Positions 5,305 to 48,670 of a stretch of 64,000 nt of DNA are shown one piece after another; positions within the stretch are counted from its first letter, which is position 1; every line of letters begins with the position of its first letter. The translations under genes were made by a program, and so were the position numbers. Source of the DNA: Naegleria gruberi. Its lineage: Eukaryota. Under the pieces are notes generated by a model. That model ran no database searches and was not told the DNA's origin. It saw only the letters and a program-made list of their open reading frames with translations. The stretch lies in assembly GCA_000004985.1 (NCBI GenBank), contig GG738856.1, one strand, 5' to 3'.

Positions 5305-7470
5305 TTACAATTCTTCAAAGCCAGCAAGTTGATTTGAGACAACTCTACTGACAGTGTCAGTGATACCTTCACCTCCAGAAACCAATTCTCTGATACCGCT
5401 ACTTTGTGCCCATTGATCTCCTAATCTATTGATATTTTCACTTGATTGTTCCAAAAGATGATTCAATCTTTGCAATCCATCAACCATGTAATTTTGCAAC
5501 ATGTCTTGTAATTGATCCTTAAGTCTTCTTCTAACATTATTCTGAATGTAACCAGATAAAACTCTCAACAGAATTTCGTGATGTTCTGCATGAGTGAATT
5601 TCAATTTCAAGTCATCAATATCGACAGTGATAGAGTTGTATTTGAACCATTCAGTATCACCAAGTTCATTAGTGGATGTATCAACATTAATCTTCAAGTG
5701 AATCATAACACCATCATCTCCAGTATCAATATTCAATAAACCTTCATCAGAGAGTTGTGGGAAAGAGAATCTCTTGAACCAAAATTGAACATCCTTAAAG
5801 TGGAATACTATTCCACTCAAGTGCAATACAAGGGTTGATTGAGTTCCTTGGAGACTATCAGCAAGCTTATCTTCACTATAATCAATGTCTGTAACAGAGT
5901 GACCAGACATTTTAACATGTGATGGTAACAAGTCAGATGCATTCATTCTCAAGCCCTTCAGTTCATATTCAACATTCTCATCAACATAATGAATATCCAA
6001 ATCTGTAAAAGATGATACAGTTTCCTTAATCATAGACACCATCATAACCTTCAATTCATTCAGANNNNNNNNNNNNNNNNNNNNNNNNNNNNNNNNNNNN
6101 NNNNNNNNNNNNNNNNNNNNNNNNNNNNNNNNNNNNNNNNNNNNNNNNNNNNNNNNNNNNNNNNNNNNNNNNNNNNNNNNNNNNNNNNNNNNNNNNNNNN
6201 NNNNNNNNNNNNNNNNNNNNNNNNNNNNNNNNAGTATCTACGAGTGTCCTTCTCAACTTGATCTAACAATTTGGAAAGCTCCTTGTCATTGCTGAATGCC
6301 TTATAGATATCTTGCAATGATTGTTCCATATCCTTGATGATCTTTTCATTACCAACCCATTGGATTAACAACTTTTCACCATTCTCTTTCATATTGATAA
6401 AGTACTTGTCATTTTGCATTTCCTTAACCAAATCGTTAACGTTACTCTCAATGTTATCATTGAAAATGAACTTGAGTTGATCGAACATGTTGGAGAATCC
6501 CAAAACTGCCTTTCTGTAAGATCTATTTGAAGAGAATTCCTTGATAAGTTCACTAAATCTATCATAAATTTGGTCTTCTAACTTTTCTTGCTTTAATTCA
6601 GCAGATTTGACATCTGACTTGGTAGGTTCTACTGATGCAGCAACAACCTTAGTCTTTTGCTTCTTGGAAGAAGATTCAACACTGGATGATTCTAAGAATG
6701 GCTTTTCCCAATCACTCTTATTCTTTGGAGTATCTTCAGTAACATCCATTTGATCCTTAACCTTCTCTTTCAACTCATCATCATCATCATCAAGATTATT
6801 GACAATTCTTTGAATGGCAGCTCTTGAGACCTTCGTTAGCTTGTACATGAATGTTAGTGAGGCTCTTATTTGACAATACTCTCAAATAGTTCAATGTATC
6901 AACCATTAAAAGTCTAAATGAGTTGGATCTAAACAGTTCAAAAATAAAATTGGAAAAGTTCTGAACTGATTCATAGAAAGACTTGGTTTCTTGATTGAGT
7001 TGGTCATTCACATCACTTGTGGTATCCTTAACTACATGTACAACTTTATCAGAGTACTTGTCAATGAACATGTTGGTATTGTAAATGAATTGTTGCAATA
7101 CCTGATCCTTATTCTTCTCTTCAATTAATTGTTTAACAATGTCTAACAGGTGAATAGCACGTTCTTGAATATTTTGACTTGATGTGACATATTGTGATGA
7201 TTTGTCAACAATATCTTTCACCTGTTCAACACCACTCAAAAGTTGTTCATTAGAAGGAATTTCACCCTTGGTAAGAGACTTTAATCCTTCAATGGTTTGA
7301 TCAATTGCCTTATTGTCAACTGTGACATTAACAATATTCTCTTGGATGTTTTCCTTTACCTCTTGAACAGTATCAGCAATTTTAGGAGTAATAGTTGTAG
7401 ATGAAGATGGATTCTTGATTTCTACCATTTCCAATGTTTTGTTGTTTTTTAATTGTTTTAATTTCTTCAC
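5305..7470 (-). CDS. Hypothetical conserved protein in a multi-exon gene that spans the assembly gap. It has an N-terminal coiled-coil region, an acidic DDDDDE stretch, and a C-terminal globular domain of unknown function
   Basis: ORFs 6796..7470, 6060..6848 and 5305..6054 share a strand. A 40-nt GTATTG...CAAG intron (about 6850..6889) joins the first two in frame as ...NYLR|LTKVSRAAIQ. The ORF is interrupted only by the N-run, which is in frame. Confidence 0.45.
6065..6232. other. Assembly gap (168 N)
   Basis: Run of n characters inside the coding region of the 5305..7470 gene. Confidence 0.99.
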
Positions 7471-35800: not shown

Positions 35801-35873
35801 GCCCGTCTAGCTCAGTCGGTAGAGCGCAAGGCTCTTAACCTTGTGGTCGTGGGTTCGACCCCCACGGTGGGCG
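35801..35873 (+). tRNA. tRNA-Lys (anticodon CUU)
   Basis: gcccgtctagctcagtcggtagagcgcaaggctCTTaaccttgtggtcgtgggttcgacccccacggtgggcg has a 7-bp acceptor stem (with GU pairs), a D-arm AGCTCAGTCGGTAGAGC, a T-arm GTGGGTTCGACCCCCAC, and anticodon loop gctCTTaac. Confidence 0.9.
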
Positions 35874-36241: not shown

Positions 36242-37921
36242 ATGAGCAACAACAAGTACAGTCACAATGATGCCATCATGGAGATGCAGGATAAATTAAA
36301 CCTTCTGGATGGAGATCGTGATAGAAAAGCAACAATGGAAACAAAACAAAGAGCTTTGCAAAAGAATATCGATACATTAGAGATGGTTAAAAAGGAAAAC
36401 AATGAATTAAAGGAAACGTTAAAAAAGCTTCAAAAAGAAGTAGGAGGAAATAACGGAGAGAAATCATTCCAAGAAAAAGAATATGAAAGATTGGAAACAA
36501 TTCTTCATTTGAAAAGACAAGAATTTGATGAGCTTCAAGCTATTGCTAGAAATTTGCAAAAAACAATCCGAAAGAAGGAAGATAAGTTGGGTGATTTCAA
36601 TAAGGAAAAGGCACCAATCCTTACTGATGACTCGCCCTTGACGAGACAAATCAGAATTTTAGAAAACAGACTCGATAAGGCCATGATTAAGTACAATGAA
36701 GCTCAAAGTATTAAAAAGACATATGAACAAATTTTGGAAAGACTAAAGGAGGAAAGAATAGGGTTCGATAACCAACTTCAAGCAATTGAAAGAACTTTGA
36801 AAGCCAAGGATAAGGACTATATTGAATTGTTGAACATGTCCCGAGATGCTAATTATTTGAGAGAGCTTGCTAAAAATGAATTGACAACAGCAAAAGGTGA
36901 ATTCGAAGAATCTGTTAGGGATATGAGAAAGGAACTTGATGAAAAGAAGAAATATGTTGAAGCTAGAGTTAACTTGACAACTGACTTGGCAAAGAAGGAA
37001 GCAAATAGAAGAAGAAATCAAGATGAAGAAGGATCAAAGAAGTTCAGATCCTCCAGTGCATCTCAACAAAACAGCAGTGTAAATAAGACCCAAGTTGATG
37101 AAGAAAGAGATAGACTTCAAGGTTTAGAAGAAAAATGGAGAAAGATCAAGGAAGTAACTGGTGTAGATGATGTAAATGAAGTTATCCAGAAATTCCTTTC
37201 ATCTTCGGACACACACAAGAATTTGGAACAAATGACAAAGGAATCTCAAAAGAGAATAGAACACCTCACTGAAAAGAGAGCAGCTTTGAAAGCCAGACTT
37301 GAAGATCTTAAATATTCTCAATCATCTGGTTTGGGAAGCAGAAGAATTGTCGACGAATTCATTCAACAATTATCAGAAGCCCAATCAAAGAACGAAAGAC
37401 AAAAGCAACAATTCGAAAGAATTGCCAAAATACTGGTCAACGTTAAAGCTGGTACAGAACACTTGAATGATAAGATGGCCCCAGCTCTTGTTGATTTATC
37501 AATGGCAGAAAATCTTTCAAGGAAGTTTATTGAAGAAATTGCCAGAGGTGAAGATATTTCTCTTAATGCAGAATCAGCCAGGGATGAGAATGTTAGCATG
37601 TCTACAGTCTCACTAGGAACTCAAAGTAACGAAGAACGACATATTGTAAATTTATTAGCACAATGTTATGTCAATTTATCAGCTGTTTTAGAAAGTTTAC
37701 CATCAGAGGAAGAACTATTCCAAGAAACTTTGAAATCTACCGATTCATTTGATTTCAATCAAAGTAAGAATAATATTAGAATTAAGATCAATCATGAAGA
37801 TAATCAAGATTCTGAATCCGAAGATGATGATGATGATAAGGAAGCTGAGCTCATCAGTAGACTTAACGTTAAGAAAAAGGCTGAGAAACTCATGTCCAAA
37901 ACTAAGGTCGTTAAAAAATAA
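36242..37921 (+). CDS. Axonemal coiled-coil protein, probably an outer-dynein-arm docking-complex subunit (CCDC63/CCDC114/DC2-like, DUF4200 family)
   Basis: Coiled coil of 559 aa. The segment TRQIRILENRLDKAMIKYNEAQSIKK resembles the conserved ENRLDKA..KFNEA core of ODA-DC proteins. It sits in a window that also has DNAI2. Confidence 0.45.
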   Translation: MSNNKYSHNDAIMEMQDKLNLLDGDRDRKATMETKQRALQKNIDTLEMVKKENNELKETLKKLQKEVGGNNGEKSFQEKEYERLETILHLKRQEFDELQAIARNLQKTIRKKEDKLGDFNKEKAPILTDDSPLTRQIRILENRLDKAMIKYNEAQSIKKTYEQILERLKEERIGFDNQLQAIERTLKAKDKDYIELLNMSRDANYLRELAKNELTTAKGEFEESVRDMRKELDEKKKYVEARVNLTTDLAKKEANRRRNQDEEGSKKFRSSSASQQNSSVNKTQVDEERDRLQGLEEKWRKIKEVTGVDDVNEVIQKFLSSSDTHKNLEQMTKESQKRIEHLTEKRAALKARLEDLKYSQSSGLGSRRIVDEFIQQLSEAQSKNERQKQQFERIAKILVNVKAGTEHLNDKMAPALVDLSMAENLSRKFIEEIARGEDISLNAESARDENVSMSTVSLGTQSNEERHIVNLLAQCYVNLSAVLESLPSEEELFQETLKSTDSFDFNQSKNNIRIKINHEDNQDSESEDDDDDKEAELISRLNVKKKAEKLMSKTKVVKK

Positions 37922-38880: not shown

Positions 38881-40233
38881 ATGAGTGGAAAACAATTGTG
38901 GGTCAAAAAGACAGTGGTCAATAATAACCAACAACAACAACCATCATCTCCCAATACAGCAACAACAAACAATAATACTCCAACAAGTAATACAACAACT
39001 CCGAATGTTACCTCAGGAAGTGATCAATCATCTTCAACCCAACCAAATAATCCTGCCAGCACATCACCATCTTCAACTCTAAAGATTACTTCAACACTCA
39101 AACACAATGCCACTCCATTTACTCCCCAAAACTTTGTACCCCTTACACAACCTCAACCTGTCCCAACACCACAACCAGTTCCTCCTGTACTAGTAGCTGA
39201 AAAACAACCACACCCTAAAAAGAATCACCCAAAGAAACAACATCAAAAGGCTAATCAAGGAAATAATAATCAACAAAATAATCAAGGAAATAATGTCGGA
39301 AATAGTAATACTAATAATAATAATAATGAACAACATTATGGAAGTCTTTTGAAGAACAAGACAAAAGTAATTATTAGAAATATTCCCTATAATTTTACAG
39401 AGCAGGATTTTATTGTGAAATGTGCTCCAAAGAGTTTTGTTACAGAGCAAGTAAAGCAGCAACAACCTCCTGTTGTAGCTAGTGCCACACCAACTTCGGA
39501 ACCTAGCACTCCAACCCTACCAGAAATTCCACACTTTATCTATGATCCTAAAAAGATCACATGGTCCGACTTTCATGTTGGACACAAGACCATGACTCAG
39601 GTATTTTCAAGTATTGCTTATTTGAATTTTGCAAGTGTTTCCTTGTTGCATCAGTTCAAAAATGAATTTTATGAGGAGTTGAAGAGCAAGCAATCAGTTG
39701 CTCTTTCTTCCTCTGTTCAAATCACGGATGATGATGTTGATGAAAGTCCAGTACCTACATTGGCAGCTACTAATACCTCAATATGGAGAGAAACACCAAT
39801 GACTATTGAATATTGTCCTCTACAAATGGTTCCAAAGCCAAAGAAGAAAGATCCAAGAGATGGAACAATTTTCAAGGATGAACATTATTTAAGATTTTTG
39901 GAACAACTAAAGCAACCTAAAGATCTCACATTACAACCTCTTAGTTTGGATAATAGTTCTACGACAAGTGGACTTGGTCTTGATGGCGGAGAAAGCTCTG
40001 ATGGAAGTACTTCAAGCAAAAAACTTGGTACAAATATTCCACTTGCTCTTGGAGGTGTTGGAGCTTCATCAAGTTATACTAAGAAAACTGACGAACCTAT
40101 TATTTCACCATTATTGAAGGAATTACTTGAAAAGAAAAATAAGAAGGGAGCTAATCAAAATAATGATCCAAACAAACCAAAGGGAAACAATCCTAAGAAG
40201 TCTGGAAAGCCTCAATACAAGAGAAAATACTAA
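38881..40233 (+). CDS. UPF3-like nonsense-mediated decay factor (Smg4/UPF3 RRM-like domain) with an N-terminal low-complexity T/N/Q/P region and a basic C-terminus
   Basis: KVIIRNIPYNFTEQDFIVKCAP...YLNFASVSLLHQFKNEFYE...MTIEYCPLQMVPKPKKKDPRDGTIFKDEHYLRFLEQLKQP parallels the UPF3 pattern KVVIRRLPP..L....F.....VF.D..G.EY.A.VE.APFQK..KKK.K.RD.K.GTI..D..Y..FLE. Confidence 0.65.
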   Translation: MSGKQLWVKKTVVNNNQQQQPSSPNTATTNNNTPTSNTTTPNVTSGSDQSSSTQPNNPASTSPSSTLKITSTLKHNATPFTPQNFVPLTQPQPVPTPQPVPPVLVAEKQPHPKKNHPKKQHQKANQGNNNQQNNQGNNVGNSNTNNNNNEQHYGSLLKNKTKVIIRNIPYNFTEQDFIVKCAPKSFVTEQVKQQQPPVVASATPTSEPSTPTLPEIPHFIYDPKKITWSDFHVGHKTMTQVFSSIAYLNFASVSLLHQFKNEFYEELKSKQSVALSSSVQITDDDVDESPVPTLAATNTSIWRETPMTIEYCPLQMVPKPKKKDPRDGTIFKDEHYLRFLEQLKQPKDLTLQPLSLDNSSTTSGLGLDGGESSDGSTSSKKLGTNIPLALGGVGASSSYTKKTDEPIISPLLKELLEKKNKKGANQNNDPNKPKGNNPKKSGKPQYKRKY

Positions 40234-40394: not shown

Positions 40395-42820
40395 TTAGAA
40401 ATATAATGTTTTCACATCATTTGGATCATATCTCATACCGCACCTAGGACATTTTCTGTTTCTTATTTTGATATTCTTATCCAGACAAGTCTTACAAAAA
40501 CAGTGGAAGCATCTACTGATCACTGTATCAATATCGTTCTCATTACATTGAGAACATCTGAAAGAAGTGTCAGTGCTGCTACTTGCGGTAAGTGTCTTTT
40601 CCTTTTCTAAGAAACGTTGCTTCTCCGATTCCAGCTTTTTGATGGAAAGAGTTTGCTTGTGACATTCTGTCTCCTTCTTTTCAAGGTCCTGTAAAAGTTG
40701 ATTATTTTTAGCTTTGGATTGTTCCAGTTCTGTAGAAAGTGATTGCACTGATTGTTTGGAATTTTCCAAAACTTGTCTTTGGTGATCAATTATTCTCTTG
40801 TATTGAGTTTCTTCAAGCTTTCCCTTTTCAACAATTTCTGATAACATGGTCTTTTCGTTATTGAGTGTCACTATTTTTTCATCATATTGTTTCTTAATTT
40901 TCTCATGTTCTGTACAAACATCAGATAATCTTTTCATTTCTTCCTTCATTGATTCTACATTCTTTTCTAATTTAGCCTTTTCTTTCATGGACTCAAGTCT
41001 TTGTTCTTCTGCTCTATCAACTCTTTTGGCAATGTCCTCCTTTTCTTGGAGTAATTTTTCATAACATTGCGTTGTATCATTGAGAGAACTTTCAAACATT
41101 TCACTTTGTTCCTTCCATTTGATAATTTCTGCCTTGAGTAAAGAAATTTCCGTTTCTGGCTCCTTAGGTTGAGAAGAAGATTCTTTAGACTCCTTATGAT
41201 CGGCTGCTAATTTTGACAGCTCTTCATTTCTCTTCTTGTACATATTTAATTGTCTAACAATCTCTTCCTTATCTTGCTTGTAAACTCGCAATTCTTCAGC
41301 AGATGCTTTAGCTCTTTCATACCTAGCAACAAGTTTGTTGTACTTTTCTGTTTGCTCTTTTTTCTTTTGAAGCAATTGTTCATTCTGTTTGACAAGGTGG
41401 TGCTCAGACTTTTCCTTTGTCACCTTTTCAAGATTATCTTTGAGATTCTTGTTTTCCTTCTTCATTTCAAGTATATCTTGTTTAATCTTTTCCTTAAAAG
41501 TATTATAAGTTTCTTCAAGAGCCTTGATATTTGCCTTATTCTTTTCAACTTCCTGATTGTATTGATTGTAAAATTGTTCAACTCTTAATTTTTCCTTTTG
41601 AACATGATCCTTATAGTAATCTACTTCAGCAGTAACGTTTTTGATCTTTAACTCTAATTCCTCTATTTTGACTTTGTGTCGTTCATTAATGCCATATTCT
41701 TTAGAATATTTTTGAGCATATTCTTGTAACTCTTCTTCTCTTTTTAAAAGAGCTTGTCTGACATCATCTACTTGGGCATTTGCAGGTAAGCTGTCAAGAG
41801 CTGATGAAGAAAAAACTCGTGTTGGCGTACGGAAAGGTGATAATGGTGTAGAACAAGGAGATGCTGAACGTAATTCTTCATTTTCTAAAGAAATTCTTTC
41901 AACTTTTTTGTATGTGTCTACATATTCCTCCTGTTTCTCATCTAACTTTTGTTTTAATTCCTCTAATTTTTTGTTTGAGTCTTTAAGTTGTTCATGAAGA
42001 GAATTGTATTCATCCTTTATCTCTCTATATTCAATATTTAAAGCTTTGAGTTTCTCTTCCAATTGTTTCTCATTACTACTCGTTTTCCCATCTTTTACGC
42101 TGTTAACTGATTGTATGATTTTTGAAAGTATACTCTTCAACCTTTCGAACAGTTGGTTAATTGAGTCATCATCTGTTTTGCCATTGTAAACTTTGCTAAT
42201 AAAATCCAAACCTACCACTCCATTTGGAACTGAAGGTAATCTTGATAACTGTATTGAAATGTCTTCTATCATCTAACAAGGTTATTATAGGAAATGTATT
42301 TGAAATGAAACATACATGATTAAATTGTCTAACAAGTCTCATCATATTCGAAGAAGTATTATCTCTTTGTTTGGATGCTTCTTTAGCTTCATTAATAAGC
42401 TGTTGATTTAACATGTTTAACTCCTTATTTTTGAGTAATAATCTCTTCTTTTGCTCATTGACAAGTTTCAGGTCATGCTGAAATGGTCATTCAATAATTA
42501 ATTAAAATCAATCTACATACCACTTCTGAAGCGTTAAATTTAGTCTTCTTAGTTGGTGGAGAAAGAGGTTCAGATGATTGTGATTGTTGGGATGGTTCAA
42601 TTTTAGTTGGGGTAGATGGGAAAGAAGTTGTTGTGGAAATAGAGGAAGGTGTGGCTTGTGTAGGGGTAAAAGATCCAACTGCAGGACTTGGTGTATCTGG
42701 TATTGATTGAAGATTAGTAGTATTGATATGAAGATGACTTCCATTCAACTTTGGACTTCCTTGGTTGATTTCATCTTGTTTTCTCTTCCTAACCTCCTTA
42801 TCCTTCAGTTTGTGCAACAT
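40395..42820 (-). CDS. E3 ubiquitin-protein ligase BRE1 (RNF20/RNF40 family), with a long coiled coil and a C-terminal C3HC4 RING; 3 exons
   Basis: Exons are about 42522..42820 (ATG MLHKLKDKEV), 42306..42478 and 40395..42262. They are joined by two 43-nt GTATGT...CAG/TAG introns at about 42479..42521 and 42263..42305. The total is 2340 nt, in frame. The C-terminal CSQCNENDIDTVISRCFHCFCKTCLDKNIKIRNRKCPRCGMRYDPNDVKTLYF matches the BRE1 RING. Confidence 0.75.
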
Positions 42821-47038: not shown

Positions 47039-48670
47039 TTACTTTTTCTTAATGGCCTGTAAAAACATGTCCTCATCTTCTTGCAATTCACTTTCGTTAA
47101 TTACCAGTGTGAAAGTTTTTGATGATTGCTCTCTTTGTTTCTTCTTTGCTTCAATTCTTCTTTGTGCTTGTTCAGATTCTTTTCTATTATCAATAAGTGC
47201 TCGTTCTCTCTTAGTTTCTCTTTCCAACATATTGTTAATAAATTCCTTTTCTTCCAAAACTTGTTGTTTTTCTTCTCCTCTCAATCCTTCACTCACTTCC
47301 AAAAGCCTAGTTGAACCATCTCTTCCACCAACAGCAATATATTTTCCATAAACACTCAAAGTGTGAAGTCCTTGATCTGACAATCTTAGAGACAACAATG
47401 GTTTGCTTTGCTTGTAGAGATAATCCCAAACATCAAGTGTGTCCAATCACCAACAGTCATAAAGTATTTTTGAAGGAATGGATTTCTTTGAATTGAATAA
47501 ATTGGACCATGGTGATGATGATGTCCATAGTAAACTTTATCAATGGCCGTACCCTTATTCTTTCTTCTCGTACAACTCAAAACAGCACCTTGTTCAGTAC
47601 CAATCATAAATTTGGTTGGCTGTGTAGTGTTAAAATTACTGAAATAATTTAGTTCAACTTACACTGTAAGAAACATCGTAATCAATAGATTCACCTCCCA
47701 ATAAACCTTGGAGTTTGCATTCACCATTTTTATCATCAGGAATTCTAAGCTCAAGAGTTTCAGAATCGACTGGATTTGAAAGGTTTCTTGTATCCCAAGT
47801 TAGTACTTGACCATCAGTTGAAGTTGAAATAAAGAATGTTGCACTCTTACTTTGAAGCCATTGAATATCATAAATTGGATCTCTGTGACTTGTTTTAAGG
47901 TCGGAAATGAGAACTTCCTCACCTCCTTTTCTTGTGTCAAATATACAAACAACACCATTGTAGCAACCTCCTGCCACTGTAGAGTTTTCCTTAGGGTTAT
48001 ATCTGATAGATGTTAAATGAGATGATGGAAGTAAAGTCACGTCTGGTTCATTGGCATTATTCACATCCCAAACGTATGCATTTGTCGGTATTTTCTTTGT
48101 TGAACTTTGAAAATCTAGGTTGGCATAAGCTACTGCCAGCTTTGAACCATCACTAGGAAGCCAAGAGATTTTGGTTGCTGTTCTCTTATCTTGGCAAGGA
48201 TCTTTGAACACCGACACAGTTTTAACCATAGATCTTTCACTTCCAAAGTCTTGTACAGTTTCCTTAAAGTAGCTACCAAATATATTGATCGCATTATTTT
48301 GTTGAATGTAATATTCAGCGTTATCTCTTAAAGAGATGAACGAATTCAAATCTTCAATATTATTTTCAATTTTCTTGATGTATCTTTCCTTGCTTGATAA
48401 TTTTGATGTATCGACATCCTTTGGCCAACCTCCTTCATTGTGCATCATTCCTTGTTCTTTTGTTTCATGGGTCTCCGTATTAGTAAAGTGTTCAGAAAAT
48501 TCGGCAACAGCTTGAGCTCCTACACTTCTGGGTTCCCTATTAATATATTTTTGCTTAAATTCCTCACTTGGTTTGATATCAACGATCATTTCGGGTTCAG
48601 TATCCACAAAATGACCACTATATCTACCAAATTGTTTCCTCAGCTTTTTGTATACTGTTACAATATCCAT
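47039..48670 (-). CDS. Axonemal outer-arm dynein intermediate chain 2 (DNAI2 / IC2 / ODA6 WD-repeat protein), multi-exon, with an apparent internal deletion and frameshift
   Basis: ATG at about 48670. The N-terminus MDIVTVYKKLRKQFGR...NEGGWPKDV matches DNAI2 MEIVYVYVKKRSEFG...VEGGWPKDV. A 43-nt GTAAGT...CACAG intron lies at about 47611..47653. Downstream are ...LSCTRRKNKG...HHHGPIYSIQRNPF..FMTVGDWT, and then DTLDVWDYLY...LLEVSEGL in another frame. Confidence 0.75.

Follow-up and report, generated by a model that had tools for sequence, protein, structure and literature searches.

The IC2 gene and its surroundings

The window (the whole 64-kb stretch of Naegleria gruberi DNA that was analysed) is gene-dense, with a G+C content of about 33% and few, short introns. 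On its minus strand, a gene spanning 48670..47039 gave a conceptual translation whose best database match was the 'hypothetical protein' NAEGRDRAFT_60431 of N. gruberi (98% identity; accessions EFC47121.1, XP_002679865.1 and UniRef100_D2V864), located on a 602-kb scaffold. The matches that followed were, in order, those of N. fowleri, Willaertia magna, an environmental Naegleria and Acrasis, and beyond the latter came hundreds of matches named dynein axonemal intermediate chain 2, with IC2/DNAI2 found throughout. When the Willaertia orthologue, 74% identical to the protein of the window, was used as the phmmer query against PDB chains, DNAI2 and Chlamydomonas IC70 were retrieved with E-values of about 1e-155 to 1e-146, compared to 8e-33 for IC140 and 2e-26 for DNAI1. 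Judged by these matches, the gene is the orthologue of the outer-arm dynein intermediate chain IC2 (DNAI2, Chlamydomonas IC70-ODA6, Tetrahymena DIC3), because the solved structures of DNAI2/IC70 were matched far more strongly than those of IC140 or DNAI1. Moreover, a convergent Med14 gene lies directly downstream of IC2 in the window, in N. fowleri, in N. lovaniensis and in the environmental Naegleria, and the gene in the window is therefore the syntenic IC2 orthologue and no stray copy. The top database matches included no further IC2 from N. gruberi. The identification as DNAI2/IC2 given in the preliminary description of this DNA was thus borne out by phmmer, by the database matches and by synteny.

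The intact Naegleria IC2 is 572 aa long. UniRef lists these 572-aa Naegleria orthologues under the mistaken name 'Guanine nucleotide-binding protein subunit beta-like protein', and in one N. fowleri entry, CAG4717438.1 (526 aa), the C-terminus is aberrant, probably because the 3′ end was mis-modelled. The gene in the window, as written, comprises the following parts:

48670..47663, minus strand: IC2 exon 1, open frame of 336 codons from the ATG at 48670, covering the N-terminal region and WD blades 1-4
47662..47620, minus strand: intron of 43 nt (GTAAGT...TTTTAAC...CAG), genuine spliceosomal
47619..47441, minus strand: exon 2 as far as the break (PTKFMIG...FMTVGDWT), with strand B of the fifth WD group as its last element
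47451..47431, minus strand: deletion junction, GGTGATTGGAC joined to ACACTTGATG, with the break between 47441 and 47440 (placement +/-1-2 nt)
47440..47386, minus strand: out-of-frame tail HLMFGIISTSKANHCCL and premature TAA (47388..47386), from the translation of the spliced sequence
47440..47039, minus strand: stranded 3′ coding part (TLDVWDYLYKQS...KKK) in the other frame, 133 codons and stop, with the last WD strands/blades and the C-terminal helices
47431..47406, minus strand: 'intron' of the NAEGRDRAFT_60431 model, 26 nt, GT..AG with donor GTTTGG, bridging the frameshift

Excision of the 43-nt intron fuses ..DYDVSYS to PTKFMIG.. in frame, and an intron occupies the same position in the contig of the environmental Naegleria. 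A run of five histidines (GHHHHHG; 47509..47523, minus strand) occurs in the IC2 of Naegleria and Willaertia, which reads GQHHHHG in N. fowleri and G-HHG in Acrasis and other eukaryotes, representing a small lineage-specific insertion.

Elsewhere in the window, a single tRNA-Lys(CTT) gene (35801..35873, plus strand) was found just before an intact ORF of 559 aa (36242..37921, plus strand) matching the coiled coil of the outer-arm docking-complex protein ODAD1 (CCDC114/DC2; Pfam PF21773, E = 3e-19). Furthermore, an ORF of 625 aa (40395..42272, minus strand) matched IFT57 weakly, its 25 bits falling short of the cut-off of 40, which probably reflects coiled-coil similarity only.

A 130-nt segment is missing from exon 2

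Using the N. fowleri IC2 as tblastn query, three segments were matched at this locus, namely residues 1-336 by exon 1 (89% identical), residues 337-396 by exon 2 before the break (95%) and residues 440-509 by the stranded 3′ part (91%), while residues 397-439 had no match anywhere in the 64-kb window. At the DNA level, the locus was aligned with those of four relatives (the environmental Naegleria, Willaertia, N. fowleri and N. lovaniensis), and a single gap of exactly 130 nt was found, with GGTGATTGGAC on one side (last base 47441) and ACACTTGATG on the other (first base 47440). In the gap region, the four relatives did not differ in length, and each encoded it in a single uninterrupted open frame. 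The missing 130 nt correspond to 43 codons plus 1 nt (396 + 43 + 133 = 572) and are expected to encode IKIWNEDISNDPIIST..KMDG; as 130 is not a multiple of three, the frame shifts. In consequence of the premature TAA, the product as written has 413 aa, of which 396 are native and 17 aberrant, compared to about 572 normally.

The second frame is open over 47446..47039, where it reads LDTLDVWDYLYKQSKPLLSLRL..., encodes TLDVWDYLYKQSKPLLSLRL... from 47440 onwards and finishes with the conserved C-terminus ...FLQAIKKK and the stop codon, the bases GGTGATTGGACACACTTGATG (47451..47431) belonging to both reading frames. Judged from the sequence, chance can be excluded as the source of this open and conserved 3′ frame, because the stranded piece matched the orthologues at E = 3.6e-37 (tblastn) and has 135 codons without a stop. 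In the two off-frames of exon 1, by comparison, 13 and 44 stops were counted per 335 codons (one every 8-26 codons), and no stretch stayed open for more than 70 and 30 codons, respectively. A location of the missing segment elsewhere in the window, as in a split gene or by trans-splicing, was also considered and rejected, residues 397-439 being unmatched there and the junction having no splice signals.

The preliminary description had proposed a deletion of about 45 codons plus a frameshift. Both were confirmed by the four alignments and by tblastn, the size being corrected to 43 1/3 codons. Its further observations, that the same nucleotides are read in two frames around the junction and that the residues between two conserved blocks are absent, also stood, and the comparison with the DNAI2 of related species that it had suggested gave an intact gene, in a single frame and 130 nt longer, in all four of them.

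Consequences for the protein

For the intact Willaertia orthologue, the AlphaFold model (mean pLDDT 78, and >90 across the propeller) had seven four-stranded beta groups, with long helices C-terminal to them. What the window lacks is equivalent to residues 395-437 of the Willaertia protein, a stretch that contains high-confidence strands at 395-399 (IKIWN), 417-422 and 429-434, with a further strand region after the first of these; the first strand kept after the deletion is 438-443 (TLDVWD). Hence, strands C and D of group 5 and strands A and B of group 6 are lost. The breakpoints, ..G-D-W-T/IKIW.. and ..M-D-G/T-L-D-V-W.., fall at equivalent positions in two consecutive WD repeats, and exactly one WD-repeat period (43 residues) has therefore been removed.

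A complete seven-bladed WD40 propeller in one reading frame is thus absent from the IC2 of the window, with 43 residues gone and the rest out of frame. According to the model, the propeller ring of the 413-aa product could not close, because the frameshift also costs the remaining blades, and the C-terminal helices would be lost. By analogy with the Chlamydomonas IC2 null oda6, such a product would not be able to support outer-arm assembly. Regarding the transcript, the premature stop lies about 350 nt upstream of the normal one. The window also encodes a homologue of the nonsense-mediated-decay factor UPF3 (450-aa ORF, 38881..40233, plus strand; Smg4/UPF3 domain, E = 9e-17), so that decay of the IC2 mRNA by this pathway is plausible.

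Age and origin of the lesion

Selective constraint was estimated by pairwise dN/dS against the environmental Naegleria, a comparison in which synonymous sites are near saturation. Exon 1 gave a value of 0.03. Exon 2 gave 0.105 up to the break and was equally constrained beyond it, at 0.118 (0.079 in the first 85 codons), and no further stop or frameshift was found in about 530 codons. Regarding the marks of a decayed pseudogene, a disabling lesion is present (130 nt, frameshift and TAA at 47388..47386), while relaxed constraint and additional lesions are absent. Because dN/dS is low on both sides and no second lesion accompanies it, the lesion would be evolutionarily very recent, or not fixed, or not real.

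On balance, a genuine and recent 130-bp deletion allele in the sequenced DNA, possibly heterozygous, is the most likely reading. The presence of the deletion in the organism, and not in the assembly alone, is what we infer, together with its zygosity and phenotype. The 130 bp could have been lost from exon 2 by end-joining or replication slippage at a microhomology of 1-2 nt; the join GATTGGAC/ACACTT would need just that, which is typical of either process. An imperfect direct repeat, GAT(T)GG.AC, is present in the flanks and has its source in the WD-repeat motif D-W-T / D-G-T; the product is out of frame because of the one-base offset between TGG and GG. Deletions by microhomology or slippage are known from tandem-repeat proteins (WD40, ankyrin, LRR), which the IC2 case resembles in having its endpoints at equivalent codons and in losing one repeat period. 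However, it differs from them in the minimal DNA similarity between the repeats (at most 6 nt of exact identity) and in a join that is out of frame, with no shortened functional repeat array as a result.

The strain NEG-M, whose assembly is the source of NAEGRDRAFT_60431, is described as heterozygous in PMC9928731, which cites Fritz-Laylin 2010 for it. It was derived from NEG as an axenic strain and is propagated clonally (PMC9081340), and it forms flagellates readily (bioRxiv 10.1101/2024.01.08.573270). In a heterozygous clonal strain, a loss-of-function allele of IC2, a gene needed only in the optional flagellate stage, is therefore plausible, and an assembler would pick one of the two alleles. 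The deletion allele might accordingly represent one haplotype of the laboratory strain or, alternatively, might have reached fixation in the axenic strain, in which selection would not act on the flagellate stage. The ready flagellation of NEG-M fits heterozygosity, and flagellates that swim slowly for want of outer arms would agree with it as well.

A possible explanation that is less likely than a genuine allele, while keeping a sizeable share of the probability, is that the gene of the organism is intact, and that the 130-nt gap arose from a deletion of a cloned insert in E. coli or from a low-coverage draft consensus, passing afterwards into the public assembly and the gene model. The assembly is indeed a draft with N-gaps, the sequence around the lesion shows full purifying constraint on both sides and no other damage, exactly as expected of an intact gene, and the species possesses outer arms and produces flagellates that swim. 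Moreover, no independent confirmation of the deletion was obtained among the sequences searched. In exact-protein look-ups, the exon-1 ORF, the 73-aa exon-2 ORF and the public model were unmatched, as was the ORF of an intronless neighbour used as a control. A protein-guided scan of JGI metagenomes found no close relative, a 21-mer metagenome scan gave three chance matches, all without IC2, and a homology search with the reconstructed intact exon 2 retrieved only the ORF of the environmental Naegleria and distant IC2s. No independent N. gruberi sequence having been found, the deletion is therefore attested by one gapped, draft Sanger-era consensus only. The IC2 gene was unlisted in the supplements of the 2024 RNA-seq preprint, and neither NAEGRDRAFT_60431 nor a defect of Naegleria IC2 was mentioned in the literature searched.

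Against an artefact stands, in the first place, the sequence at the junction. To collapse two segments, an assembler that works by overlaps requires tens of identical bases, while the breakpoint contexts (+/-40 nt) shared at most 5-6 identical bases in each of the four relatives. The junction itself is contiguous, with no N and no low-complexity sequence, the only N-gap of the window (168 N) lying 41 kb away. In addition, a single deleted clone should presumably be outvoted at several-fold coverage. With 6 nt at most in common between the breakpoints, a collapse driven by repeats is therefore unlikely, and the collapse between similar WD motifs contemplated in the preliminary description was set aside. 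Its second suggestion, a very recent pseudogenisation, fared better, since a recent deletion allele fits best and decay is absent, although a sequence artefact of another kind continues to compete with it.

It is unlikely that the deletion is both genuine and present in all copies of the gene in NEG-M. In that case, the strain would be a spontaneous IC2 null, comparable to oda6 or to primary ciliary dyskinesia, with flagellates swimming without outer dynein arms. Loss-of-function alleles of human DNAI2 cause primary ciliary dyskinesia, and the Naegleria lesion resembles them and the Chlamydomonas oda6 mutation in that the orthologous gene is hit and the WD propeller disabled. Unlike those alleles, it is known solely from the reference assembly of a laboratory strain of wild-type appearance. 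The Chlamydomonas IC2 null oda6 has flagella without outer arms (PMC4361367). Given the flagellates and the outer arms visible in electron micrographs of N. gruberi axonemes (PMC4415241), a homozygous IC2 null in NEG-M would be somewhat unexpected, even though mutants lacking outer arms do swim. Still less likely would be that NEG-M builds its arms with a six-bladed IC2 produced by unconventional splicing or frameshifting.

Very improbable is an older, species-wide pseudogenisation, by which N. gruberi would have lost functional IC2 and would be losing its outer arms. It is true that the gene put out of action is the syntenic one and the sole IC2 that could be detected, with no second copy among the top matches, but a gene abandoned for long is not what the remaining sequence looks like, dN/dS staying at 0.03-0.12 throughout, the stranded 3′ part included, and the roughly 530 codons carrying no second lesion. 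Furthermore, the ODAD1-like ORF is intact, and a second outer-arm gene, 10 kb from the broken IC2, is therefore undamaged. A long-standing loss of outer arms is not supported and conflicts with the arms seen in the micrographs (PMC4415241) and with the finding that differentiating cells induce their outer-arm dynein genes (bioRxiv 10.1101/2024.01.08.573270).

Public gene model, splicing and recoding

The public JGI model of the gene (XP_002679865.1, UniProt D2V864; 520 aa) reads ..GDWTHLI/KPLLSLRL.., fitting the removal of 47431..47406. The credible introns found in the window, one of 43 nt (GTAAGT..TTTTAAC..CAG) and one of 40 nt (GTATTG..CACTAAC..AG), agree with a Naegleria-type intron having a GTA(A/T)(G/T)(T/G) donor, a CTAAC-like branch site and a length of at least about 40 nt, from all of which 47431..47406 departs. 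The 26-nt gap has no CTAAC-type branch site and throws out the conserved DVWDYLYKQS. As an intron it is implausible, and it appears rather as an annotation fix that conceals the break. Because of the 130-nt loss behind this patch, the 520-aa protein is 52 residues shorter than its 572-aa orthologues, and 17 nearly invariant columns of the IC2 alignment are missing from it. Its AlphaFold prediction had pLDDT <50 at residues 396-407 and a pTM of 0.57, compared to 0.68 for the intact orthologue. Frame-fixing pseudo-introns are found in automated models of draft genomes, to which the 26-nt GT..AG gap of NAEGRDRAFT_60431 is alike in keeping the ORF open; however, they usually mask a single-base indel, while in Naegleria IC2 a 130-nt loss of a WD repeat is masked.

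The 40-nt intron belongs to a HAM1-like gene (5305..7470, minus strand), split into three ORFs and enclosing the 168-N gap (6065..6232). A frame change in this gene at about 6.85 kb, at first sight like that of IC2, proved to be due to that ordinary intron (6879..6840). This locus confirms the draft status of the assembly and illustrates a real Naegleria intron.

A total of 141 GT..AG pairs able to restore an ORF across the IC2 break were enumerated, none of which had a canonical donor, and all of which removed conserved sequence. The earlier statement that no GT-AG intron can reconcile the overlapping codons therefore holds as far as the conserved blocks are concerned, which are never restored, but not formally, as the pair 47431..47406 does restore an ORF. 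With respect to recoding, no slippery heptamer of the form X XXY YYZ was found in the zero frame of exon 2, the sole XXXYYYZ (TTTGGGA at 47430) being in the wrong register. No stable RNA structure was detected downstream (minimum free energy of -16.4 kcal/mol against a shuffled mean of -18.9; z = +0.76), and the two-frame arrangement was conserved in none of the four relatives, all of which encode the region in a single frame. Programmed frameshifting or recoding, in the absence of a slippery site, an unusual RNA structure and a canonical splice signal, was thus rejected, and with it the 'programmed or unusual recoding' entertained earlier. Moreover, a recoding event of any kind could not supply the 43 missing conserved residues.

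Finally, a functional IC2 with a six-bladed propeller, obtained through the 26-nt micro-intron, another non-canonical splice or frameshifting in the 58-nt overlap, is hardly credible: the deletion equals exactly one WD-repeat period, so that an in-frame join would keep the blade register, and ORF-restoring GT..AG pairs exist, but the candidate donors come without the GTAAGT/GTATTG and CTAAC signals, every splice option drops conserved residues, 17 nearly invariant positions fall in the missing part, the 520-aa model is disordered at the junction, and neither an in-frame heptamer nor the folding downstream nor the plain single frame of all the relatives speaks for it.

Implications

The gene at this locus is a well-known one that stands disabled in a public draft genome behind an annotation patch, either as a loss-of-function allele or through an assembly lesion, and no new mechanism is involved. 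N. gruberi NEG-M provides the reference genome for studies of how basal bodies and flagella form de novo and for reconstructing which ciliary genes the last eukaryotic common ancestor had. With a WD blade and 17 near-invariant positions missing, the database entry for IC2 may therefore mislead alignments, structure predictions and presence/absence profiles. If the lesion is an artefact, a concrete correction of the assembly follows. If the deletion is true, work on motility and on the axoneme carried out in NEG-M, rather than in NEG, would be dealing with a strain in which one or all copies of IC2 are null.
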